The notes below the pieces were generated by a model. The model ran no database searches. It saw only the letters and a program-made list of their open reading frames with translations, and was not told the DNA's origin. 13,626 nt of DNA. Source: an uncultured bacterium (lineage in GTDB: Bacteria > Chloroflexota > UBA5177 > JANWHV01). Made by a program: the position numbers and the translations under genes. Shown here piece after piece: positions 2,718-13,626 of the stretch. Numbering within the stretch: the first letter of the stretch is position 1; the number at the start of each line of letters is the position of its first letter. Where the stretch lies: positions 1 through 13,626 of the forward strand of contig CAVSOU010000006.1 of NCBI GenBank assembly GCA_963729625.1, given 5' to 3'.

Positions 2718-3158
2718 ATGTCCTTGATCATGACCCGTGACGAGCGGGAAGCGTTTCTGGCAGCGCTGCATGTCGGCGTGATCAGTATCGAGCAGCAAGA
2801 CCGTGCGCCGCTCGCAGTGCCGGTCTGGTACAGCTACATTCCGGGCGGCGAGCTGCACCTGACCACGTTTGGGGACTCACGCAAGGCGCAGGCGCTGCGT
2901 GCTGCAGGCAGGTTCAGCCTTTGCGCGCAAGCCGAGGCGTTTCCCTACGCGTACGTGTCGGTGGAGGGCGAGGTGTTGGCGATAGAGGCAGTGGATGTCG
3001 AGCGCGATCTGCGCCCACTTGCACGGCGCTACCTGGGGACTGAGGGTGGTGACAAGTATGTAGCCGAGAATGGAGGCAGCGACGCGGGCAAGGGCCTTAT
3101 TCTCGTGCGTATGCGTCCACAGCACTGGTTGTCGACAGACTACGCGAAGGCTGTTTGA
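2718..3158 (+). CDS. Pyridoxamine 5'-phosphate oxidase-like (PPOX split-barrel, FMN/F420-binding) protein
   Basis: 146 aa: MTRDEREAFLA...GVISI...PLAVPVWY...SRKAQALRAAGRFSLC...YVSVEG...LARRYLG. Strong AAGGAGG RBS at 2701-2707. Confidence 0.9.
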   Translation: MSLIMTRDEREAFLAALHVGVISIEQQDRAPLAVPVWYSYIPGGELHLTTFGDSRKAQALRAAGRFSLCAQAEAFPYAYVSVEGEVLAIEAVDVERDLRPLARRYLGTEGGDKYVAENGGSDAGKGLILVRMRPQHWLSTDYAKAV

Positions 3159-3273
3159 GGAAACACGATCGCTATCTTTGTCGCGGCAAACGAGTACGCG
3201 GATGCGGCTCATGGCGGTCCCCGTGGCGCAGATGCGCCGTGAAGTCAGGGATGATCGAGCAGGGGAGGGGATG

Positions 3274-4190
3274 ATGGCAGAGAACGGCACGGTGACGGTC
3301 ATTGGTCTTGGACTGATGGGTTCGGCTGTGGCACATGCCTTCTTGCGCGCCGGGCACGACCTCACGGTGTGGAACCGAACGCCGGAACGAGCGGCGCGGT
3401 TCCAGGGTCTCGCACGGATCGCAACCGACGTGCGGGAGGCGTGTGCCGCGAGCGACACCATCGTGGTCTGCGTGCGCGATTATGAAGTGAGCAACGCCCT
3501 CCTGCACACCGCTGCCGTCGAGGAAGTCACGAGTGGCAAGGCACTGGTGCAGTTGACCACCGGGACGGCCGCCGACGCCCGTGCCAGTGCAGCTTGGGCC
3601 AGGCAGCACGGTCTTGCCTACCTCGATGGGGCGATCTTGGCCGGTCCTGGCGACATCGGCGGGGAAACGTCCTCGATCCTCTGTGCTGGCGAGGCGACTG
3701 TATACGAAGAGCACCGAACGCTACTGGGCGCCCTTGGGCAGACGACCCATTGCGGCGAGGAGATCGGCGCGGCAGCGACACTGGACATGGCATTCTGCGA
3801 GGTGGGGATGCCCAGATCGCGGCGCTCCTTCATGGCGCCGCACTCTGCGCAGCTGAGTTGGTCCCGTTGGATCTTTACTTTGGCATTGTCAACCCCTCTG
3901 CAGAATTGCTCGCCTCGTGCACGCTCGATGGTCCAGCCGACGAGCGCCCGCCAGCTACGGCAGCGTCGGCCGCGCAGGCCATGGCGCGGCCGCGCAAATA
4001 TCGTGAAGCCGTTGATGCCAGCATGAACATCTGGGCAGCGGGAGCCGAGCACCTCGTCCAGGCAAGTCGAGAAGCAGGTATAGATAGCCGGATCCAGGAG
4101 GCGACGCTCGCGTGCTTCAGGAAGGCTGTTGACCGCGGACATGGCTTGCACGATTTGCCGGCGCTCTACGAGGCGTTCGTGCGCGAGTGA
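3274..4190 (+). CDS. NAD(P)-dependent oxidoreductase, imine reductase / beta-hydroxyacid dehydrogenase family (one apparent frameshift near 3804-3807)
   Basis: VTVIGLGLMG, VWNRT, YLDGAI and GAAATLDMA in ORF 3070..4026. The C-terminal helical domain (ALLHGAAL...GHGLHDLPALYE) continues in ORF 3594..4190. Adding one G to the GGGG run joins them. GGAG RBS at 3264-3267. Confidence 0.85.
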
Positions 4191-4194
4191 ATCG

Positions 4195-4237
4195 AGGACC
4201 ATCGTTGGAGTCTGAGCGTCCATCGCGGGTCCTTTTT
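4195..4237 (+). terminator. Probable intrinsic terminator
   Basis: AGGACC..CG.TGGA / TCCA.CG..GGTCCT interrupted stem followed by a T run, starting just after the stop at 4190. Confidence 0.5.
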
Positions 4238-4298
4238 CACTGATGAAACGGAGTTTGCGCTTGCTCGCGCGAAGCCGGCGCAGCAAAAGAGGTGCAGC

Positions 4299-5491
4299 AT
4301 GAAGGTGGTGATCCTGGGCGGAACCGGGGGCGTGGGTCAGGCGGCTGCGCGCCTGCTCGTGGCAAGCCCCGACGTGGACGAGGTGCAGGTTGCCGGCCGC
4401 ACCCAGGCGAGAGCGGACGACGTGGCAGCTGGGCTGGGTCCCAAGGCTTCCGGTGTGGCCGTTGATGTGCGGCACCACGACCGTCTGGTGGAGATTGCAT
4501 CCCGTGCCGATGTGCTGGTCAATACGGCGGGACCCGACTTTGAGATGCAGCTTCCCGCCGTCAAGGCAGCGATCGCGGCCGGCGTCAATTACGCCGACAT
4601 CGCCGCGGACGGCCGTGCGACCGATGAGGTGCTTGCCCTCGACGGCGAGATGCGTGTCAAGCGTAGAACGGCGCTGATTGGAGTGGGAGCCGCTCCCGGG
4701 TTGACGAACCTGCTCGCGATACAGGCTCTGCGGCGACTCGACGTGGTCAGCGACATCCACTTCGGGTACCTGTGGGGAAGCTTGGCTGGTTGGCGTGATG
4801 CCGGGGCCACGGCGGCTGCATGGCGCGTCTCCGGCAGCGTGAACGCTTCATGGCAGACGGTGATGGCGTTTGTGCGGGGTCCGGTGCGGATCTATCGCGA
4901 CGGGCAGCCCCAGACGGTCGACCCATTCACCCATGGAGTGACGGTTACCTGGCCGACCGGCGAGTCGCTGGTCGCCTATCCGGTGGACAGCGCCGAGACC
5001 CGCACGCTGCCGTTGCATCTTCCCGGAGCGCTGTCGTTCACCAGCCTGGTGTCGTTGTGGCCCCGCGGCTCAATGAGTTGTGGAGGGAGCAGAGCAGTCA
5101 CATGCTGGTTGGGATCATGGGCCCGGCAGAAGCGGCACAGGCACTGTACGAGGCTGTCGCCGCGCGGCCGGGGCACTGGCTTGCCAATGCCGGCCAGGAG
5201 CCGGAGCAGCTCGTGTGGTTGATTGCTCGCGGCCAGTCCGGCGGACGGCCCGCCCGCTATGCCTGCTGGCCACGGCGCTGGTTCTATTCGACGACAGAAA
5301 GTCTCCTCGCGGTGGCCACTCTGGCGATGGTGCGTGGTGAAGTGCGAGCCAGAGGGGTGGTGCCGCCGGAGGTCGCCTTCGAACCGTCAGATGCCCTGTT
5401 TGCTACGTTGGCGGGCTTCGCAGGGACAGACGCGTCGCAAGAACCCCTGTTTGACGAGTCGATTGTGTATGAGGACAGCGTGAGCGGGTGA
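4299..5491 (+). CDS. Saccharopine dehydrogenase-like NAD(P)-binding oxidoreductase (one apparent frameshift near 5061-5064)
   Basis: MKVVILGGTGGVG, LVNTAGP, GVNYADI, GVGAAPGLTNLLA and C-terminal 'RGVVPPEVAF'. One extra C in CCCC gives WPPRLNELW and joins ORFs 4299..5222 and 4820..5491. GAGG RBS upstream. Confidence 0.85.
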
Positions 5492-5553
5492 GCGGGCGGA
5501 AAAGCGGCGTGCTGACCTGCCAGGGCGTGAGTCTCATTGGCGAGGAGGTCAGA

Positions 5554-6069
5554 ATGACTACGCGAAGTGCGCGGTTCGATGTGCATGCGCCACAGGTGGT
5601 GCCCTGGGCACCCATGCTCGACAACGTGCGGTATCTGGAGACGCTGAGTATCGGAACTGTCTGGCTTGGCGACCACTACGCCTGGGTGCCCAGTCCAAGC
5701 GATCCCGCGCTGGAAGCCTGGACTACCCTCGCGGCCCTCGCTGCCGAGACCACGCGGGTGCGTCTGGGCACGTTGATCACCAACGTGGCTCTGCGGCACC
5801 CGGCCATGCTGGCCAAGCAGGCGGCAACAGTGGACTGCATCTCGGGGGGAAGGCTCGATCTCGGCCTTGGGCCTGGCTACTTTGAGGAGGGGACTTGGGC
5901 AAGCCGTGATTCCCTTGAAGCGTTCGCTGCTCAGGAGATAGATGACATGCAGGACACGGAGGGTAGCCTATTAACATTGCGAACTGGGAGCCGCCTTCTA
6001 TCTTGCTGTGGCGGCGTGTGCGGGCTACACTTCACGCGTCGACTACCAGCGAATGAGTCTTGGCGGTAG
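5554..6069 (+). pseudogene. LLM-class (luciferase-like) flavin-dependent oxidoreductase, internally deleted or truncated
   Basis: GAGGAGG RBS and ATG at 5554. Motifs VWLGDH, EAWTTLAALAAETTRVRLGTL, RHPAMLAKQAATVD and SGGRLDLGLGPG are present. Family resemblance breaks at about 5890, after only about 112 codons of a TIM-barrel protein that is normally about 300 aa. Confidence 0.8.
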
Positions 6070-6121
6070 GCGACCGAAGAGTAGCCCCGCGTGCCGCCGG
6101 CGAATCGCTGGAGGGTAGCAG

Positions 6122-6610
6122 TTGAACGGGCGCATTGTGGCAGTTGGTCGCATCCGAGGCGTGACCCTCCTGTGCTTCGCGGCAGCATCGGTCGCCATCG
6201 GTCTGGCAGGCTGTGGCAGCAGCTCGACCAGCGGACCACGGACAACGGTCGCTCCCAGCGCGACTGCCGGTACCGTGAACCTCGCAGGCTGTGTTCCGGC
6301 GTCGACGGATGGGAATGGCGGCCCCTACCCAGCCGCCACCTCAAGCGATTGCACGCGGCAGAAGACCGTGGAGATCGACGTCGTGAACGATCCAAAGACG
6401 ATTGGCGGATTCTCGCCCAGTAACGTCCGGGTGTCTCGCGGGACCACGGTGACGTTCGTCTGGAAGTCTTCGGGCCACAATCTCAGCCCGTTCCATACCG
6501 ATATTGAAGACACAGGCTACGTGTTCCGCAAGACTTTCGATCGCGCCGGAGAGTACGACTACAATTGCCAGGTCCACCCGGGCCAGAACGGCGTGATATT
6601 CGTCCGGTAG
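6122..6610 (+). CDS. Cupredoxin (plastocyanin/amicyanin-like blue copper) lipoprotein
   Basis: GGAGG RBS and TTG start; signal peptide with LAGC lipobox (Cys codon 6212); Ser/Thr/Pro linker; then FSPSNVRVSRGTTVTF, GHN and YDYNCQVHPGQNGVIFV. Confidence 0.88.
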   Translation: MNGRIVAVGRIRGVTLLCFAAASVAIGLAGCGSSSTSGPRTTVAPSATAGTVNLAGCVPASTDGNGGPYPAATSSDCTRQKTVEIDVVNDPKTIGGFSPSNVRVSRGTTVTFVWKSSGHNLSPFHTDIEDTGYVFRKTFDRAGEYDYNCQVHPGQNGVIFVR

Positions 6611-6811
6611 CGGCAAGCGATGCAGTATTGTATGCTAACGACAGGGGCAGCTCGATCGGTCCCCGGATTCGACGACGGTGCGTGAACTATGCTCGTTCAT
6701 TAGAAGGCCGCGAGGAGAGACAGTGTCCGCGGTGTTGCCATCGGTGTGCGCGGACAAGCCACGGCGTGTTTTGACACCTGTGCCTGCCAGTGCGGGAGGT
6801 TATCCAATACT

Positions 6812-8241
6812 ATGACTCAGACATGCGCCCGCTGCGGCCTCTTCCATCCGCAGAATGTGCCGTGCGTCTCGCAGGCATTGGCACTGGTCGAACAACCCGA
6901 TGAGCTGGTCGTCGATTCTCTCCTGGCGGGTCGCTACCGTATGCTGCGGACGCTGCATCACGGCGGCATGAGCGTCGTGTATCTGGCCGAAGATATTCTG
7001 CTTGGGAACCGCCACGTGGCTATCAAGGAGCTGCGGGTGCCGGCCTCTTCCGGGCCTGAGGAGCGGCGTGAAGCCGAGGCATGGTTTGCCCGCGAGGCAT
7101 ACATTCTCAGCGCCTTGAATCATCCTCTCGTCCCGGAGTTCTACAGCTCGTTCCCGGAAGGCGGCACAAGCTATATCGTCCAGGAGTACGCCGACGGCGA
7201 GAACTTGAATGACGTGGTGCGCGCGCGCGGACCGCTGCCCGAAGCCACCGTGCTGGAGTGGGCAATATCGCTCTGCGGACTCCTGAGTCACCTGCACGGG
7301 CTGGACGAACCGGTTCTGTTCCGTGATTTGAAACCCGCGAACATCGTGCTTCGGAACGCTGCGTCGACGAATCCAGACCGGGCGTGCCCGCTCAAGGTCG
7401 TGGACTTCGGCATCGCCAGGCACTATGAGCCGAAGACGGTTGGCACGGTCATAGGCACTCCGGGTTACGCACCCCAGAGCAATACCAGGGCCTCGCCACA
7501 CCGCAGAGCGACATCTACGCGCTGGGTGCGACGCTGCACAGGTTGCTCACCGGCTACGATCCCGAGCACGGCACCACATTCTGCTACCCGAGCATTCGCT
7601 CGCTGAATCCGTTGGTCTCAAGTGAGCTTGCCGATATCGTCGAGAGAGCTATCCGCCTGGACCCGGCCCAGCGCTATGCCACGGCCGGTGAGTTTGGCGA
7701 TGCCCTGCTTGACCTTGCCTGGGACCGTGGCCAGATCGGCGTTTCCGACGTGGCATCGCCGGGCGGTCACTGGTACCACGGACCGTCGACCAGGTCGCGA
7801 CAGGCGTTCCGTTGGACGGCCCTCGTAGTATGCCTGATGATGGTTGCGCCCGGCGTGTTCTCAGTGCTTGCCGGCATGAGCGTGAGCTCCCCGAGCGCGA
7901 CGATCGGCTTGGGAGACTACGCGTGTCCTCCAGCCTACTCTGATGGGGCCGGGGGTCCTTATCCTGCCCAGTCCCGATCGTCGTGCCTCGGTCAATCCCG
8001 GGTCTGGATTCAGGTCGTGCCGGACGCCAACCAAGGCGTCGGCTTCGCGCCGAGTAACGTCAGCGTCAGCGTGGGAACCACGGTAGAGTTTTGGAGCAGT
8101 AGTATCGGCTGCAAGGTCGCATGGTCGCCGAATACGGTCGGCGTGCGGACTCTGTCCGGAATCCAGTTCACGCGCACGGGTGACTATATGTACTCCTGCC
8201 AGGAAATGCCAAACGTGTTTGGGGTTGTGCATGTCGAGTAG
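6812..8241 (+). CDS. Membrane Hanks-type Ser/Thr protein kinase with C-terminal cupredoxin-like domain (one apparent frameshift near 7472-7475)
   Basis: GGMSVVY, VAIKE, alphaC Glu (FAREA), FRDLKPANI, DFG and GTPGYAP. One extra C restores APPEQY...SDIYALGATL...DPAQRY. A hydrophobic helix lies at about 7813-7878, followed by a cupredoxin-like beta domain. Confidence 0.88.
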
Positions 8242-8301
8242 GAGTCGGCACGGCAGGTTCTCCAGCAGTGCAGCTGATTTTCTGGGAGTGACGGCAACTG
8301 G

Positions 8302-9587
8302 GTGACTGAGCCAAGGCGAGACGGCGACACCTCGGCGCCCGCACCGGCCGTGGACACGCTCCTCTCCAAGAGCGTGATAGTCGTGCCCACGTACTGGAGT
8401 CGGTCGCACGGATTTCGTCGCCCGGGAGACAGCACGGAGGATCATCCGACTCCCGCCAACGAGTCGGGCACTATGGCCCGTCTGCTTGCCAGTCTGCAGC
8501 GGCTGGCGGAGAAACCCAGTCTGGTTCTGATACTCATCTCCAGCTCCGCGCCGGACGTGGCAACCAGTGCGTCGTGGCAGGCAGACACTATTCGAGACAG
8601 ATACCCCGATCTCCCGATCGCGCTTTGGCTGCCGACGCATGTGCAGATTCTGCATGGCCGGCTCCGTTCGCTGGGTCACGACGCGTGGATCTCCTGGTTT
8701 GATTCTCGCGGCTACCCGCTCATCCGGAATATGCAGCTTCTGGTGCCTTTCGTGCTTGGCATGGAGCTGGTCGTGGCGCTCGATGACGACGAGATCGTCG
8801 AGGACCCCCATTTCTTGCGGCGTTCCGCCGAGGCAATCGCGTGGGGTGACGCCCGCGGCGAACGCGTGTTCGGTGCCGGCGGGCACTACCTCGATGATGC
8901 CGGCCGGCGTTGGCACGAGGTCGGGGAGTCGGAGAAGACGCAAACCAACCCGTTCGAGAAGAAGCCCCACCTCATGAATGGGATCCTCGAACGTATTGCC
9001 GCGATGCCCGGAGAGATCGTGCCGAGCGCGTTCGCGCTCGGCGGAAACATGAGCTTCAGCCGTGAGCTCATGTGCCGGGTGGGGTTCGACCCTTCGATCG
9101 CACGGGGAGAAGATATCGACTACGTGCTCAACGCAGCGCTCGCTGGCATTCCCTATCACTTTGACAAGGAGCGACCAATCCGGCACCTTCCGCCCCAAGG
9201 ACGGTCCTACAAGGACTTCGATTATGCAAAACTGCAGCAGGACGTGAGACGCTTCCTTTACGAGCGCGAGAAGCTACGCGCCGCGGCGGAGGCCGGTGGC
9301 TTTGCAGCAGTGCGGCCGAGGATCTTGATCCATACCCGGGCGCCTTCTTGCATGACGACCTGGAGGTCGACGCGGTCGATTCGCTGACGCTGCACAGACC
9401 GAAGCTCTTCGACGTGAGCATCCAACAGCCCGACGTGTTCGTCCAGAACGCGCTGCATTTCGCGCGCGCCGCCGCCGAACGCTACATCACGTTTGCCCGA
9501 GCATGGCCTCAGGCGAGGATCGGCTTGCCGACAATCGCGTGCTCCGGCATGTCATCCGGGGCATTCTTCCCGGGTAGTCTGTCCTGA
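8302..9587 (+). CDS. GT-A fold (family 2-like) glycosyltransferase / conserved hypothetical protein (frameshift near 9316; possibly a second near 9514 giving a stop at 9577)
   Basis: N-terminal VIVVPTYW strand, DxD-type ALDDDE, ALGGNM, FDPSIARGEDIDY and IRHLPP. One added base gives RPEDLDPYPGAFL and joins ORF 9348..9587. Confidence 0.72.
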
Positions 9588-9608
9588 AGGGCCTCAGCCC
9601 GGCGATCG

Positions 9609-11172
9609 CTACAAGCCTTGAGGCGCGGACGCGCGTCTCCACCTCAGGTCTGGCTTCCGTGCCGCGAGAGCTTCGTCGATGCGCGATACCGGCGCATGGT
9701 GCGGCGCGCCGCGGACCTGGTCGCTTCCCGCTTCGACTTCCCGGGCAACCGCCAGCAGCGCCTCGGCAAAGCCCTCGAGAGTGGCTCGATCTTCCGTCTC
9801 AGTCGGCTCGATCATCAGGCACTCGTCGACGATGTGCGGGAAATAGATGGTCGGCGGATGGTAGCCGAAGTCGATCAGGCGCTTCACCATGTCTATCGTC
9901 TTCACGCCTTGTTGCTTCTGCCGCGTGCCCGACACCACGGATTCATACATGCGGCTGCCCGGGAAGGGCGCCTCGAACGCGCTGATCAGCAAGGAACGCA
10001 GGTAGTTGGCATCGAGCACGGCGTCGCGGCTTGCCAGCGTCAGGCCGTCGGGACCCATGGAGCGAACGTACACGTATGCTCGAATGAGCAGGCCAACGTT
10101 GCCGAAGAAGCTGCGCACACGGCCGATGCTGAGCGGCCGGTCGCTCGTGAGCGTGTAGAGCTCCGTGCCATCGGCACCGGTTCCCCGCTCGATCTGCGGT
10201 ACGGGCAGGAAGGGCGCCAGCGCGGCCTTCACCCCGACGGGACCCGTGCCCGGTCCGCCGCCGATGGGCGTGGTCATCGTCTTGTGCAGGTTGAAGTGCA
10301 CTACGTCGAAGCCCATGTCGCCGGGACGCGCGGTGCCCATGATCGCATTGAGGTTCGCTCCGTCATAGTAGAGACGTCCACCGGCATCGTGTACGATGCC
10401 GGCTATCTCCACGATGTCCTTCTCGAAAAGACCGCACGTATTCGGATTGGTGAGCATCAACGCCGCGGTTCGCGGTCCGGTTAACCGGCGTAAATCGTTG
10501 ACGTCGACCTGGCCCGAGCATTGGATTCACTTGCACGACGCTGTATCCTGCGGCAGCCGCACTCGCCGGGTTGGTTCCGTGGGCCGTGTCCGGCACCAGG
10601 ACCTCGCTCCGGTGATCGCCGCGACTCTCATGGAAGGCGCGAATAATCATCAGACCCGTGAGCTCGCCATGCGCCCCCGCTGCCGGCTGCAGCGTGAAGG
10701 CGTCCATGCCGCCTATCTCACAGAGATACTCCTGCAAGCGGAAGAGAAGCGCGAGCACGCCCTGGACTGTGGAGTCGGGCTGGTGTGGATGGAGACCGGA
10801 CCAGCGTGGATCGGCGACTAGGTCCTCGTGCAGTTTTGGATTGTACTTCATGGTGCACGAGCCAAGTGGGTAGAATCCGCCGTCGATGCTGTAATTCAGC
10901 TGCGAGAGCCTGGTGAAGTGCCTCACGACCTGCAGTTCACTCATTTCGGGCAGCTCAGCAGTTGTAGATCGCTGGAGTTGCGATGGGATGAGTGCCGCGA
11001 TCGGTTGCTCAGGCACGTCACAGGCCGGAAGGGAGAAAGCCGATCGACCGGGAGACGATAGCTCAAACACGGTCGGCTCGAGGACCTTGCGGTCGGCGGT
11101 TGTCGCGGCGGAGCTTGGCCGTGCTGGCGCCGCGTCCTGCATATCTTTCAAGGGCTGGCCTATCGCCATCAT
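9609..11172 (-). CDS. gcvPB: Glycine dehydrogenase (decarboxylating) subunit 2, glycine cleavage P protein beta (apparent frameshifts near 10514-10528)
   Basis: [49 protein letters not shown]-lysine motif [14 protein letters not shown] and MIEPTETE. The ATG overlaps the restored gcvPA stop (ATGA). Confidence 0.95.
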
Positions 11173-12510
11173 GCGCGCACCTCTCCCAGTGCCTGAGCCA
11201 GGGCATCGATATCTTCTCTGCCGTTCAGTCCGTGCAACACACGAGCAGTCCTTGCGGAATGCCCGCCTGTCCATCCAGCGGGATTCCGGCGAGGATGCCA
11301 CGCGTGACCAGGGCGTCGCGAATCTCCGCTCCCGGCAGAGGCGTGCGGACCGCGAACTCATGGAAGAAGGGCCGGTGAAAAGCCAGTTCATAGCCGGCGA
11401 CCCTGCCGATCTGGTCGGCCGCGTAGTGCGCCTTCTGCACGCACAGATTGGCTACGTGGCGCAGACCCTGCTTGCCCATGTAGCTGAGGTACATGGTGGC
11501 CGTCGTGGCGCAGAGCGCATGGTTGGAGCAAATATTGCTGGTAGCCTTCTCCCGTCGAATGTCTTGTTCGCGCGTGCGCAGCGTCATGACGTAGGCACGG
11601 CGCCCCCGCGAGTCGACGCTGGCGCCCACGATGCGTCCCGGCAAGCGACGCACGAGCGATTCCTTGCAGGCGATGAACCCTGCGTACGGTCCGCCATACG
11701 CGAGCGGCATGCCAAACGGCTGGGCATCACCCACCGCGATGTCCGCGCCCACTTCACCGGGCGTGCTCAACAGTGCCAGCGACAGCGGGTTTACACACGC
11801 GACATACAGTGCGCCGGCCCCGTGCGCGGCTTCGGCCAGAACCGCCTGGTCTTCGACAATCCCGAAATAGTTCGGCGACTGAGCGATCACGACCGCGCTG
11901 CGATCGTCGAGGGCCGCGGCCACCCGCGCGGCGTCCACGCTGCCATTCAGGGCCGGCACTTCAGTCAATGTAAGGCCCTGGCTCCAGCAGTACGTCCGGA
12001 GCACCTGCAGATAGTCGGGATTGAGTGTGCCGGGCACAATCACCCCACGACGCCCCGTGGCGTTCACGGCCATCATCGCCGCTTCCGCACATGCCGTGGC
12101 GGCGTCATAGAGCGAGGCGTTGGAGACGTCGAGCCCGGTTAGCTCGCAGATCATGCTCTGCCACTCGTAGGTCACTTGCAGCGTGCCCTGGCTAACCTCC
12201 GGCTGGTACGGCGTGTACGCTGTGACAAACTCGCCACGGGACGCCAATGCCGAGACAACGGCCGGAATGTGGTGATGGTAAGCGCCGCCCCCAAGGAAGG
12301 AGCGTGGCCCGGCACGCAGGCTATTGCGGTCGGCCAGTCTCTCCATCTCCTGGATGATCCCGGGTTCCGAGACCGCAACTGGCAGGTCGAGCGGACCAGA
12401 GCGCAGTCCTGATGGATGTCGGCGAGCAGGTCCTCCATGCTGGAGACGCCAAGCGAATCGAGCATCGCGCCGCGATCGGCATCGGTGTGAGGGAGATATG
12501 GTGTGGGCAT
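11169..12510 (-). CDS. gcvPA: Glycine dehydrogenase (decarboxylating) subunit 1, glycine cleavage P protein alpha (apparent frameshifts near 12414 and 11229)
   Basis: [36 protein letters not shown] and [17 protein letters not shown]. The restored C-terminus is [31 protein letters not shown] upstream. Confidence 0.95.
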
Positions 12511-12558
12511 TCTGCGGTGATCCTTTGAACTCGTCAATCTCGATGTGTCCCCGCGCTG

Positions 12559-12580
12559 CCCTGATGCCGCAGCTTCAGGC
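12559..12580. repeat. 22-bp palindromic direct repeat, copy 1 (REP-like)
   Basis: CCCTGATGCCGCAGCTTCAGGC, identical to 12692-12713; folds with a CCTGA/TCAGG stem. Confidence 0.85.
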
Positions 12581-12691
12581 CCACGGGCGCCATATCTCGT
12601 AGCCGCCGCAGCCGCGGGGTACGCATACAGTGGGTCGCCTTCCATTCTGCTGCAGCTGGAGGTCAATCAAGTGGAAGCCCCCCGTGCGCTC

Positions 12692-12713
12692 CCCTGATGC
12701 CGCAGCTTCAGGC
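12692..12713. repeat. 22-bp palindromic direct repeat, copy 2 (REP-like)
   Basis: CCCTGATGCCGCAGCTTCAGGC, identical to 12559-12580. Confidence 0.85.
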
Positions 12714-12754
12714 TTGGAACACATCGCGACGACTCCCCCCTTCACGTATCAGCC

Positions 12755-13126
12755 TCAGTGCGCGGCGGTCTCCTGGTACGTGGCCCGATCCATCAACAGT
12801 TCCCGATCGGCGACATTCCCTGAGATCTTTAGTAGCCAGCCGTCGCCGAACGGGCTGTTGTTCACGAGCTCGGGCTTGTCCACCAGCGCGGTGTTCACCT
12901 CCACCACGGTGAAATCGATGGGTGCGTACAGATCTGAAGCAGTCTTCACCGACTCGATGGTCCCGAAAGTCTCGCCGGCCTTGAACGCCTTGCCGACCGG
13001 CGGAAGCTCGACGTACACGACGTCGCCCAGCTGTTCCTGCGCGAAGTCGCTGATGCCAATGGTCATGGGGTCGCCATCGCTTGTCCACTCGTGGCTGCTC
13101 GCATAGCGGAGAAGATCCGGATTCAC
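12755..13126 (-). CDS. gcvH: Glycine cleavage system H protein
   Basis: [27 protein letters not shown], lipoyl-Lys motif [13 protein letters not shown] and [23 protein letters not shown] before the GTG at 13126. Confidence 0.96.
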
Positions 13127-13344
13127 GTCTGTCCCTCCTATGTGCTTCATCGGTGTACGGTCAACTGGCGAAACGATCGTCGACTCGGGCGCGCCCGGGA
13201 ATCGCGATCTGTGCTGATGAGTCAAATGTCCTGCCTGTGGCCTTTCCAGTGGCCGGGCCTCGGCCCGCGCGTCTGATACTCCCGCCTTCAGGCCGCCTCT
13301 GCTGTTGTGCCCTGGGAAACGTTACGAACGTGACAAGTGCCCCT

Positions 13345-13626
13345 CTAGGTTTGCTTTTGGCGTCGATAGAACGGTGTCTTGACTACCGTGGCTCGGTGCG
13401 GCTGGTCGCGCACCCGCACGGCAACCGTGGTGCCGATTGGCGACTCCGCGACCGGCAGATAGGCAAGGGCGATTCCCTTGCCGAGCGTGGGCGAGAAGCC
13501 GCCGCTCGTCACCTCGCCAAGCTGATTGCCTGCGCTATCGACGACAGCGTAGTGGGCGCGCGGCACAGCCCGATCATCCATGGCGAGCCCGGCAAGCACG
13601 CGTGTGAGACCTTCTCGCTGCTGCGC
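13345..13626 (-). CDS. gcvT: Glycine cleavage aminomethyltransferase T, C-terminal part (runs off the window)
   Basis: PRAHY...GEVTSGGFSPTLGKGIALAY...VVKTPFY; sits directly upstream of gcvH. Confidence 0.93.
   Translation of the reverse strand, partial: AQQREGLTRVLAGLAMDDRAVPRAHYAVVDSAGNQLGEVTSGGFSPTLGKGIALAYLPVAESPIGTTVAVRVRDQPHRATVVKTPFYRRQKQT

Follow-up and report, generated by a model that had tools for sequence, protein, structure and literature searches.

The window, as we call the whole stretch of DNA analysed here, is 13,626 nucleotides long and constitutes the complete 13.6-kb contig C6 (G000:C6) of the genome assembly of an uncultured soil bacterium of the Chloroflexota (G000; 5.4 Mb in 21 contigs, 87% complete, 5% contamination). 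Near its middle two genes lie next to each other on the same strand, the first for a putative blue-copper lipoprotein and the second for a predicted receptor kinase of the Hanks serine/threonine (Ser/Thr) type, whose extracytoplasmic sensor domain (ectodomain) is a paralogue of the lipoprotein. The ectodomain is modelled as a cupredoxin fold in which the copper site of the homologues is replaced by a pair of cysteines. The features of the two genes are as follows.

6122..6610, plus strand: blue-copper lipoprotein gene, 162 amino acids (aa), with a TTG start behind GGAGG, a match to PF00127 and an LAGC lipobox
6290..6607, plus strand: cupredoxin domain of the lipoprotein, with a Cys57-Cys77 loop and putative type-1 ligands placed by profile alignment
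6611..6811, plus strand: spacer of 201 bp between the two genes, in which GGAGG stands about 10 nt ahead of the ATG at 6812, aligned to the spacers of genomes G004 and G001
6812..8241, plus strand: receptor Hanks-type Ser/Thr kinase gene, 476 aa in its intact form and broken only in the window contig
6938..7677, plus strand: kinase catalytic domain (Pfam positions 65-311 of a 498-aa open reading frame, ORF)
7471..7472, plus strand: frameshift site, a 1-base deletion after 7471 where contig C11 of the same assembly and two public-run contigs read CCCCC
7813..7875, plus strand: single transmembrane helix WTALVVCLMMVAPGVFSVLAG, assigned by inspection and conserved in five of five kinases
7924..8238, plus strand: cupredoxin-fold ectodomain of the kinase, recognised by paralogy to the lipoprotein, an AlphaFold2 (AF2) model, Foldseek and VIA-align

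The original prediction had set out from an alignment of the C-terminus of the kinase with the adjacent lipoprotein, and this alignment holds. When the lipoprotein (6122-6607) was compared by BLASTP with the C-terminal frame of the kinase (7543-8238), 56 of 144 aligned residues were identical (39%) with 2 gaps (E 4e-23 for this single comparison), and the matching segments that had been quoted are present. The shared region exceeds the cupredoxin core, since both proteins also carry the loop C-x-P-A-x-[ST]-D-G-x-G-G-P-Y-P...C. The two genes, placed about 200 bp apart in that prediction, are indeed on one strand; as the kinase starts at ATG 6812 (MTQTC...), in front of which the GGAGG is conserved in an orthologue, the gap between them measures 201 bp. 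A scan of positions 5900-8500 found no terminator-like site between lipoprotein and kinase and returned a lone promoter-like site on the minus strand, which is uninformative. The Rfam scan of the window gave no match.

In the window the 162-aa ORF of the lipoprotein (6122-6610) is followed by the kinase in two overlapping pieces in different frames (6746-7606 and 7543-8241), and the original prediction depended on the two pieces being one protein. From 5965 to 13626 the window is matched by contig C11 of the same assembly at 99.2% identity (7674 columns, 47 mismatches, 10 gap openings). At 7471 the window reads CCCC where the C11 copy reads CCCCC, and as a result the kinase ORF on C11 is uninterrupted, with 498 aa from a GTG and 476 aa from the conserved ATG. 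The gaps amount to 12 positions in 10 events, every one of them a deletion in the window (7471, 9315, 9516, 9607 (2), 10263 (2), 10266, 10509, 10525, 11228 and 12413), and they also break the downstream gene (at 9315) and the gene for a P-protein subunit of the glycine-cleavage system. Four public sequencing runs, each holding at most 28% of the sampled words of the window, were compared with the window stretch; contigs across 7471 were found in two of the four, and both of these contigs (2/2) carry the extra C, one being otherwise identical to the window over 150 bases. With CCCCC in C11 and in both public-run contigs, the kinase is joined to its transmembrane and cupredoxin part. A true pseudogene, with a kinase that is dead in the organism, would account for the frameshift in the window as assembled; however, an intact copy stands in the same assembly, all 12 gapped positions are deleted in the window with neighbouring genes broken as well, and the extra C recurs in the two independent contigs that span the site, so that we regard a pseudogene as highly improbable. 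The most plausible source of the frameshift at 7471/7472 is a consensus error in the window contig, the kinase fusion being otherwise intact, because all 12 gapped positions are window deletions that also hit two neighbouring genes.

The window contig as a whole looks like an unpolished contig from a second strain or haplotype. Its left part matches C11 at 93.8% (1-2802) and at 90.4% with 84 gap openings (3707-5852), and for 2803-3706 no match was reported within the C11 stretch compared. For a luciferase-like gene at 5488-6069, by contrast, the window gives the better reading of the two; there are therefore errors in both copies, or the region is a mosaic.

Pfam Pkinase (PF00069; cut-off 31.7 bits) scores 118.4 bits on the intact copy and 92.7 bits on the N-terminal piece in the window. 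The catalytic motifs are all present, namely HVAIKEL, LFRDLKPAN (with Phe for His), VVDFGIAR and GTPGYAPPE, the P-P-E of which spans the deletion at 7471; the glycine-rich loop is partly degenerate (HHGGMSVVY). On these motifs the kinase looks catalytically complete. In NCBIfam the kinase part is matched best by the PknB/Stk1 model; this match, of 171 bits, covers the kinase domain only and lies below the 450-bit cut-off. By inspection, one hydrophobic helix lies between the kinase domain and the C-terminal domain, as in a single-pass receptor. The first 17 residues of this helix, together with the preceding AFR, are nearly invariant in five kinases, which suggests a specific role for the helix in signalling or in helix-helix contact. 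The nearly invariant stretch reads AFRWTALxVCxMMVAPG (window 7804-7875), and the ectodomains of the same five kinases are only 30-61% identical.

At least 18 paralogues of the kinase are encoded in G000 (20 matches, two of which are the window's own pieces). The closest is 60% identical and has the same Cys-rich N-terminus and another ectodomain; exchange of ectodomains is thus the rule in this kinase family. The N-terminus itself (6812-6870), in the window's kinase and its closest paralogues, holds a conserved C-x2-C-G-L-x-H-P-x5-C that resembles a small zinc knuckle and has no Pfam match. In addition, contigs from run X8, a peat metatranscriptome, are 90-95% alike to the window and cover 6931-7470. 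They may reflect the expression of a relative's kinase in peat, or DNA carry-over, and are no demonstration that this gene is transcribed.

The lipoprotein consists of a signal peptide with the lipobox L28-A29-G30-C31 (Cys codon 6212-6214), a flexible linker and the cupredoxin domain. Its assignment as a lipoprotein was made by inspection, and the LAGC lipobox is conserved across the family alignment. Pfam assigns it to Copper-bind (PF00127) with 31.6 bits (cut-off 21.2). The ligand columns were set by profile alignment to solved cupredoxins, in which C-Q-V-H-P-G-Q falls on the C-x2-H-x2-M of 9cck and 2ux6, and the putative type-1 ligands are His119 (6476-6478), Cys149 (6566-6568), His152 (6575-6577) and an axial Gln155 (6584-6586). 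The lipoprotein is accordingly predicted to have the blue-copper set of His, Cys and His with an axial Met or Gln. Among PDB entries the best profile match was 5fc9 (E 3e-9), followed by the C-terminal cupredoxin of nitrite reductase, plastocyanins, pseudoazurins and amicyanins. In the AF2 model (pLDDT 79.5) Foldseek matched cupredoxins only, 71 of them at E<=1e-3 and CupA (4f2e) included. Across the family the axial Gln occurs in 21 of 21 rows, the two His are nearly invariant, and none of the 25 lipoprotein-type rows has Cys in the column of the first His ligand (His1).

The whole lipoprotein family has Gln instead of the axial Met in a short amicyanin-like loop, C-x2-H-x2-Q. An axial Gln in cupredoxins is known mainly from plant stellacyanins. 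In two of the 25 lipoprotein-type rows, P0016 and P0022, Ala and Asn have replaced the His ligands, and Cys and Gln remain; since these are free lipoproteins, loss of the copper site has occurred more than once in the family. Auracyanins are membrane-tethered. They serve as blue copper electron carriers in the Chloroflexota, as described in PMC10873879. Unlike them, the present lipoprotein family is plastocyanin/amicyanin-like with an axial Gln, and its profile, which had 53 sequence matches in the PDB, retrieved no auracyanin entry.

The outer part of the kinase comprises 121 residues (linker and ectodomain), of which a domain of 109 residues was modelled. The ectodomain holds a loop between Cys128 and Cys148 (7924-7926 and 7984-7986). 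For the C-terminal piece of the kinase Pfam returned no family at E<=1, the blue-copper profile included. The AF2 model (pLDDT 82.1, pTM 0.80) gave 36 PDB matches at E<=1e-3 in Foldseek, CupA 4f2e among them, and every row listed was of the cupredoxin fold. The best 50 entries of VIA-align were likewise all cupredoxin-fold (Z 9.7-8.3, about 2 A root-mean-square deviation over 78-96 residues), with the best superpositions on pseudoazurin, plastocyanin, amicyanin and the cupredoxin domain of 9cck. The nearest clusters in the ESM Atlas were Copper-bind families, at up to 0.88, which we take as a lead only. As modelled, the kinase ectodomain has a cupredoxin fold, and we call it a cupredoxin because it is paralogous to the lipoprotein and the fold model agrees.

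The residues at the former copper site have changed. In the window's kinase, His1 is replaced by Cys (8110-8112), the second His ligand (His2) by Met and the axial Gln by Val, and only the ligand Cys remains (8197-8199). We collected eight ectodomains, from genomes G000, G004 and G001 and from the metagenome proteins P0025, P0026, P0027, P0029 and P0055, which are 33-69% identical to the window's. All eight have the change from His1 to Cys and retain the ligand Cys (C67 and C96 of the alignment, both invariant, as is C5); the His2 position is occupied by M/F/Q/Y/I/N/Y/L, and the axial position by V in seven and I in one. The two invariant cysteines thus occupy the positions which ligate one metal ion in homologues. 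Judged from these residues the kinase ectodomain is not a blue-copper protein, because both His and the axial Gln of a type-1 site are absent from all eight members. The idea that a cupredoxin copy had been fused to a kinase therefore survives in its paralogy, its fold and its intact fusion, and fails in blue-type copper binding.

Between G000 and G004 the ectodomain has a proportion of nonsynonymous differences (pN) of 0.26 against a synonymous proportion (pS) of 0.74, and its nonsynonymous distance (dN) of 0.31 exceeds those of the lipoprotein domain (0.12) and the kinase domain (0.06); synonymous distances (dS) are saturated (1.1 to >2.9), and only pN, pS and dN were used. By these measures the ectodomain is constrained yet fast-evolving, as sensor domains often are.

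To judge the age of the duplication, 40 domain sequences were placed in a maximum-likelihood tree; eight came from kinase ectodomains, 23 from lipoproteins and nine from elsewhere, and the fragments P0023, P0024 and P0057 were dropped. Lipoproteins and ectodomains together split from seven remote cupredoxins (92/86), and all lipoproteins form one clade (98/94) with every kinase ectodomain outside it. The window thus holds two paralogues of long standing, and the duplication behind the pair is old; the local duplication that had been proposed is not supported as a recent event. The kinase ectodomains form a grade in the free tree, and forcing their monophyly costs 6.9 log-likelihood units (approximately unbiased test, p 0.062); a single origin of the ectodomains is neither shown nor rejected.

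The architecture of kinase, transmembrane helix and cupredoxin recurs outside the window, as the original prediction had anticipated. Kinases with a cupredoxin-fold ectodomain are encoded in G000 (on both contigs), G004 and G001, the fusion being intact in the C11 copy and in the orthologues of G004 and G001 (475-502 aa). Among metagenome proteins, P0029 (478 aa) has a Pkinase domain and P0055 has Pkinase together with the ectodomain. When the ectodomain was used in a word-based search, a single further full-length protein emerged from 130 candidates: P0002, which has 475 aa, is annotated as Pkinase and is 60% identical in its ectodomain. In an exhaustive profile search with the ectodomain, 180 proteins matched at E<=1e-3 and 2 at E<=1e-30; the best 150 of the 180 representative proteins included three with a kinase domain, and the others have free or repeated cupredoxin domains (20 scanned). 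Strong genome matches were obtained in five of the five genomes of the window's genus, which is one of 13 genera (5 of 21 genomes) in the class, and in a sample of 401 Chloroflexota genomes nothing outside that genus matched better than E 1e-25. This sample includes two unpublished genomes, G175 and G343, with one weak match each. A scan of metagenome contigs with the alignment of the eight ectodomains gave one locus, at 31% identity and with no kinase, and the profile scan of genome contigs matched only a contig of G001, a Chloroflexota metagenome-assembled genome. In agreement with the statement that no characterised kinase of this kind was known, a search of full-text literature found no Ser/Thr kinase with a cupredoxin ectodomain, which is not proof of absence.

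The pairing with the lipoprotein is likewise conserved. In three of three kinase-bearing genomes, all of one genus, the lipoprotein gene lies directly upstream of the kinase on the same strand, despite different genes further upstream: G000 has a luciferase-like gene there, G004 has RpiR and an esterase, and G001 has a response regulator and a histidine kinase. Within this genus the lipoprotein is thus a conserved neighbour of the kinase. Two long open frames from the phylum sample were followed up, and the juxtaposition seen at one of them, in genome G068, was judged coincidental, as the cupredoxin lipoprotein and the kinase there are about 1 kb apart with an opposite-strand gene between them and the ectodomain is a different one. 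The G068 lipoprotein has 372 aa and a C-terminal plastocyanin-like domain with C-x2-H-x2-M (positions 5224-6342, minus strand, of L057, which is G068:C22:9000-18000); the kinase near it is an unrelated Ser/Thr kinase of 598 aa with a different ectodomain.

We therefore asked what such a pair could do. Our working interpretation, held tentatively and at a little under an even chance, is that the Cys pair of the ectodomain is the sensing element and that the lipoprotein is a partner which modifies this pair, either by delivering copper or by oxidising it. Behind it stand a complete kinase, a converted site, and an adjacent paralogue with a type-1 ligand set that is co-inherited with the kinase; the mechanism itself we infer. 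The Cys pair would sense either as a thiol/disulfide switch or, in the manner of CupA site S1, by holding Cu(I) between two thiolates. Anchored at the same face of the membrane, the lipoprotein would bring copper or oxidising equivalents through a contact between the two cupredoxins, and the change at the Cys pair would travel through the conserved membrane helix to autophosphorylation of the kinase. The lipoprotein may in addition have a separate role in electron transfer or copper handling.

The closest parallel known to us is the copper-export system of CupA and CopA. According to PMC5646241 and PMC7558416, CupA and the N-terminal domain of CopA are a pair of interacting cupredoxin folds, and site S1 of CupA binds Cu(I) between two thiolates, C74 and C111. 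As there, a membrane-anchored cupredoxin-fold protein is matched here by a paralogous cupredoxin domain fused to a membrane protein. The Cys pair in the His1 and Cys ligand columns of the kinase ectodomain may correspond to the two-cysteine site that CupA has instead of His/Cys/His/Met, and the models of both lipoprotein and ectodomain match 4f2e, a likeness at the level of structure only. Unlike the present pair, CupA faces the cytoplasm and serves an export pump rather than a kinase, and the free partner here retains the classical blue-copper ligand set.

A simpler use of the same cysteines would be direct sensing of Cu(I) between the two thiolates, in the manner of CupA S1 or of a linear CueR-type site, with no need for the lipoprotein. 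The two cysteines are invariant and stand where homologues ligate one metal ion, the CupA fold holds a bis-thiolate Cu(I) site and is matched by both models, and there are known cases of a cupredoxin encoded beside a copper regulator. One of them is reportedly the cin operon of Pseudomonas putida. In Rubrivivax gelatinosus, CopI is a secreted plastocyanin-like protein with an H/C/H/M site, encoded next to copAR and induced by copper, as stated in PMC4600104. Similarly, the lipoprotein of G001 and G003 directly follows a response regulator and a histidine kinase; however, the regulators of the CopI and cin systems have no cupredoxin domain, and in G000 and G004 the two-component genes are 26-39 kb away. 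Against direct sensing, neither the window nor any of the three orthologous loci that were examined holds a gene for copper export or copper resistance, a disulfide is favoured at the outer face of an aerobe, and most members have no Met or His helpers near the site. Taken together, we consider direct Cu(I) sensing quite unlikely.

The interpretation in which the lipoprotein modifies the Cys pair must also be weighed against the loci that lack the kinase, for which the gene on the far side of the pair has to be introduced.

8302..9387, plus strand: conserved downstream gene, 425-444 aa when intact and truncated in the window by the deletion at 9315

The slot between the lipoprotein and this gene holds the kinase in three genomes and is empty in two. 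In G003 the order is response regulator, histidine kinase (71% identical to that of G001), lipoprotein, an 18-bp gap and the 444-aa downstream gene, with no kinase between. In G002 the contig ends at the lipoprotein, next to which come an ORF without a Pfam family in the position of the downstream gene and an S58 peptidase as in G003. A number of observations weigh against a partnership between the two proteins. G002 and G003 are 90-92% complete, and their orthologous locus holds the lipoprotein with the downstream gene (in G002, an ORF in its position) and no kinase; moreover, no cupredoxin-ectodomain kinase was found elsewhere in either genome; the nearest kinases there are paralogues, 54-59% identical, and the best two (54%) have a short low-complexity outer part. 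Because the lipoprotein is present in these kinase-free loci, it functions without the kinase, and because it is kept where the kinase is absent, it has a role of its own. The adjacency in one genus may be synteny inherited from the original tandem duplication. Likewise, the two cysteines, lying at the outer face, may simply form a structural disulfide in place of the lost metal. In P0026 the N-terminal loop is missing its second Cys, and the Met-rich second site of CupA, C-x-M-x-M, is absent from the ectodomains, whose loops read, for example, C-Q-E-M-P-N or C-Q-Q-F-P-N; a Met follows the Cys in the window's protein only, and there is no conserved Met.

There is a different account, in which the adjacency is a relic of tandem duplication and fusion, the lipoprotein is an ordinary blue-copper electron carrier, and the ectodomain is a copper-free, disulfide-held beta-sandwich that binds an unrelated ligand or only dimerises. 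In its favour, the lipoprotein persists without the kinase in G002 and G003, and a second lipoprotein paralogue in G001 stands alone; moreover, the kinase family of G000 swaps its ectodomains freely, the ectodomain is highly variable across members between its strands, and the pair-bearing genomes all belong to one genus. A relic fits less well with the history of the locus. In G001 and G003 a histidine kinase directly adjoins the lipoprotein, whereas its orthologue lies 26 kb upstream in G000 and 39 kb upstream in G004, and lipoprotein and kinase stayed together through this large upstream rearrangement. In addition, the change from His to Cys is fixed in eight of eight ectodomains at 33-69% identity, which indicates selection on the pair, although a structural disulfide would be selectable too. 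We regard the relic account as unlikely, though a serious contender.

A sensing Cys pair with a lipoprotein partner would extend a familiar receptor design. Like PknB/StkP with their PASTA domains, PknD with its beta-propeller and PknH, the protein has a cytoplasmic Hanks kinase, one transmembrane helix and a C-terminal extracytoplasmic sensor; unlike in those kinases, the sensor is a cupredoxin fold. In MtrB-LpqB and CpxA-NlpE a lipoprotein at the same membrane face is encoded beside, or acts on, a membrane kinase sensor; these differ in that the kinases are histidine kinases and that lipoprotein and sensor are not paralogous. In its strongest form, the claim would be that this is the first extracytoplasmic copper or redox receptor among Hanks kinases, a blue-copper site rebuilt as a two-Cys switch that the lipoprotein charges or oxidises, and in that form we consider it improbable.

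The genes around the pair add some further detail. The response regulator upstream of the lipoprotein in G001 and G003 is of the OmpR type, and the histidine kinase has a HAMP domain and about 20 outer residues (two-component genes at L022:4991-6885 and L023:742-2642, and at G000:C11:113795-114886); the lipoprotein may thus be linked also to an OmpR/HAMP two-component system. The downstream gene (copies at L009:10200-11474, L021:10112-11443 and L023:3386-4717) follows the kinase in G000 and G004 and directly follows the lipoprotein in G003, with 64% identity between G000 and G003. It has no Pfam family; its one family signal, weak and local, is to EpsD, a glycosyltransferase model (E 5e-4), and its protein carries DDDE and GEDIDY motifs.

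To conclude, this locus would add a cupredoxin to the sensor folds of bacterial receptor Ser/Thr kinases, a group in which the signal has been established for very few types of ectodomain. The reach of the finding is limited to one uncultured Chloroflexota genus and a handful of metagenome proteins. Within that reach it is a clean natural case of a metal site turned into a Cys pair after duplication, and the two invariant cysteines, standing where homologues hold copper, make the site testable; since the candidate partner is encoded next door, the question of the ligand is directly approachable with two small soluble domains. On the evidence of its genes this is a real, intact module and a new sensor-domain variant on the receptor Ser/Thr kinase theme, with a predicted signal. 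If the Cys pair does act as a switch that the lipoprotein charges or oxidises, it would be the signalling counterpart of the hand-off from CupA to CopA.

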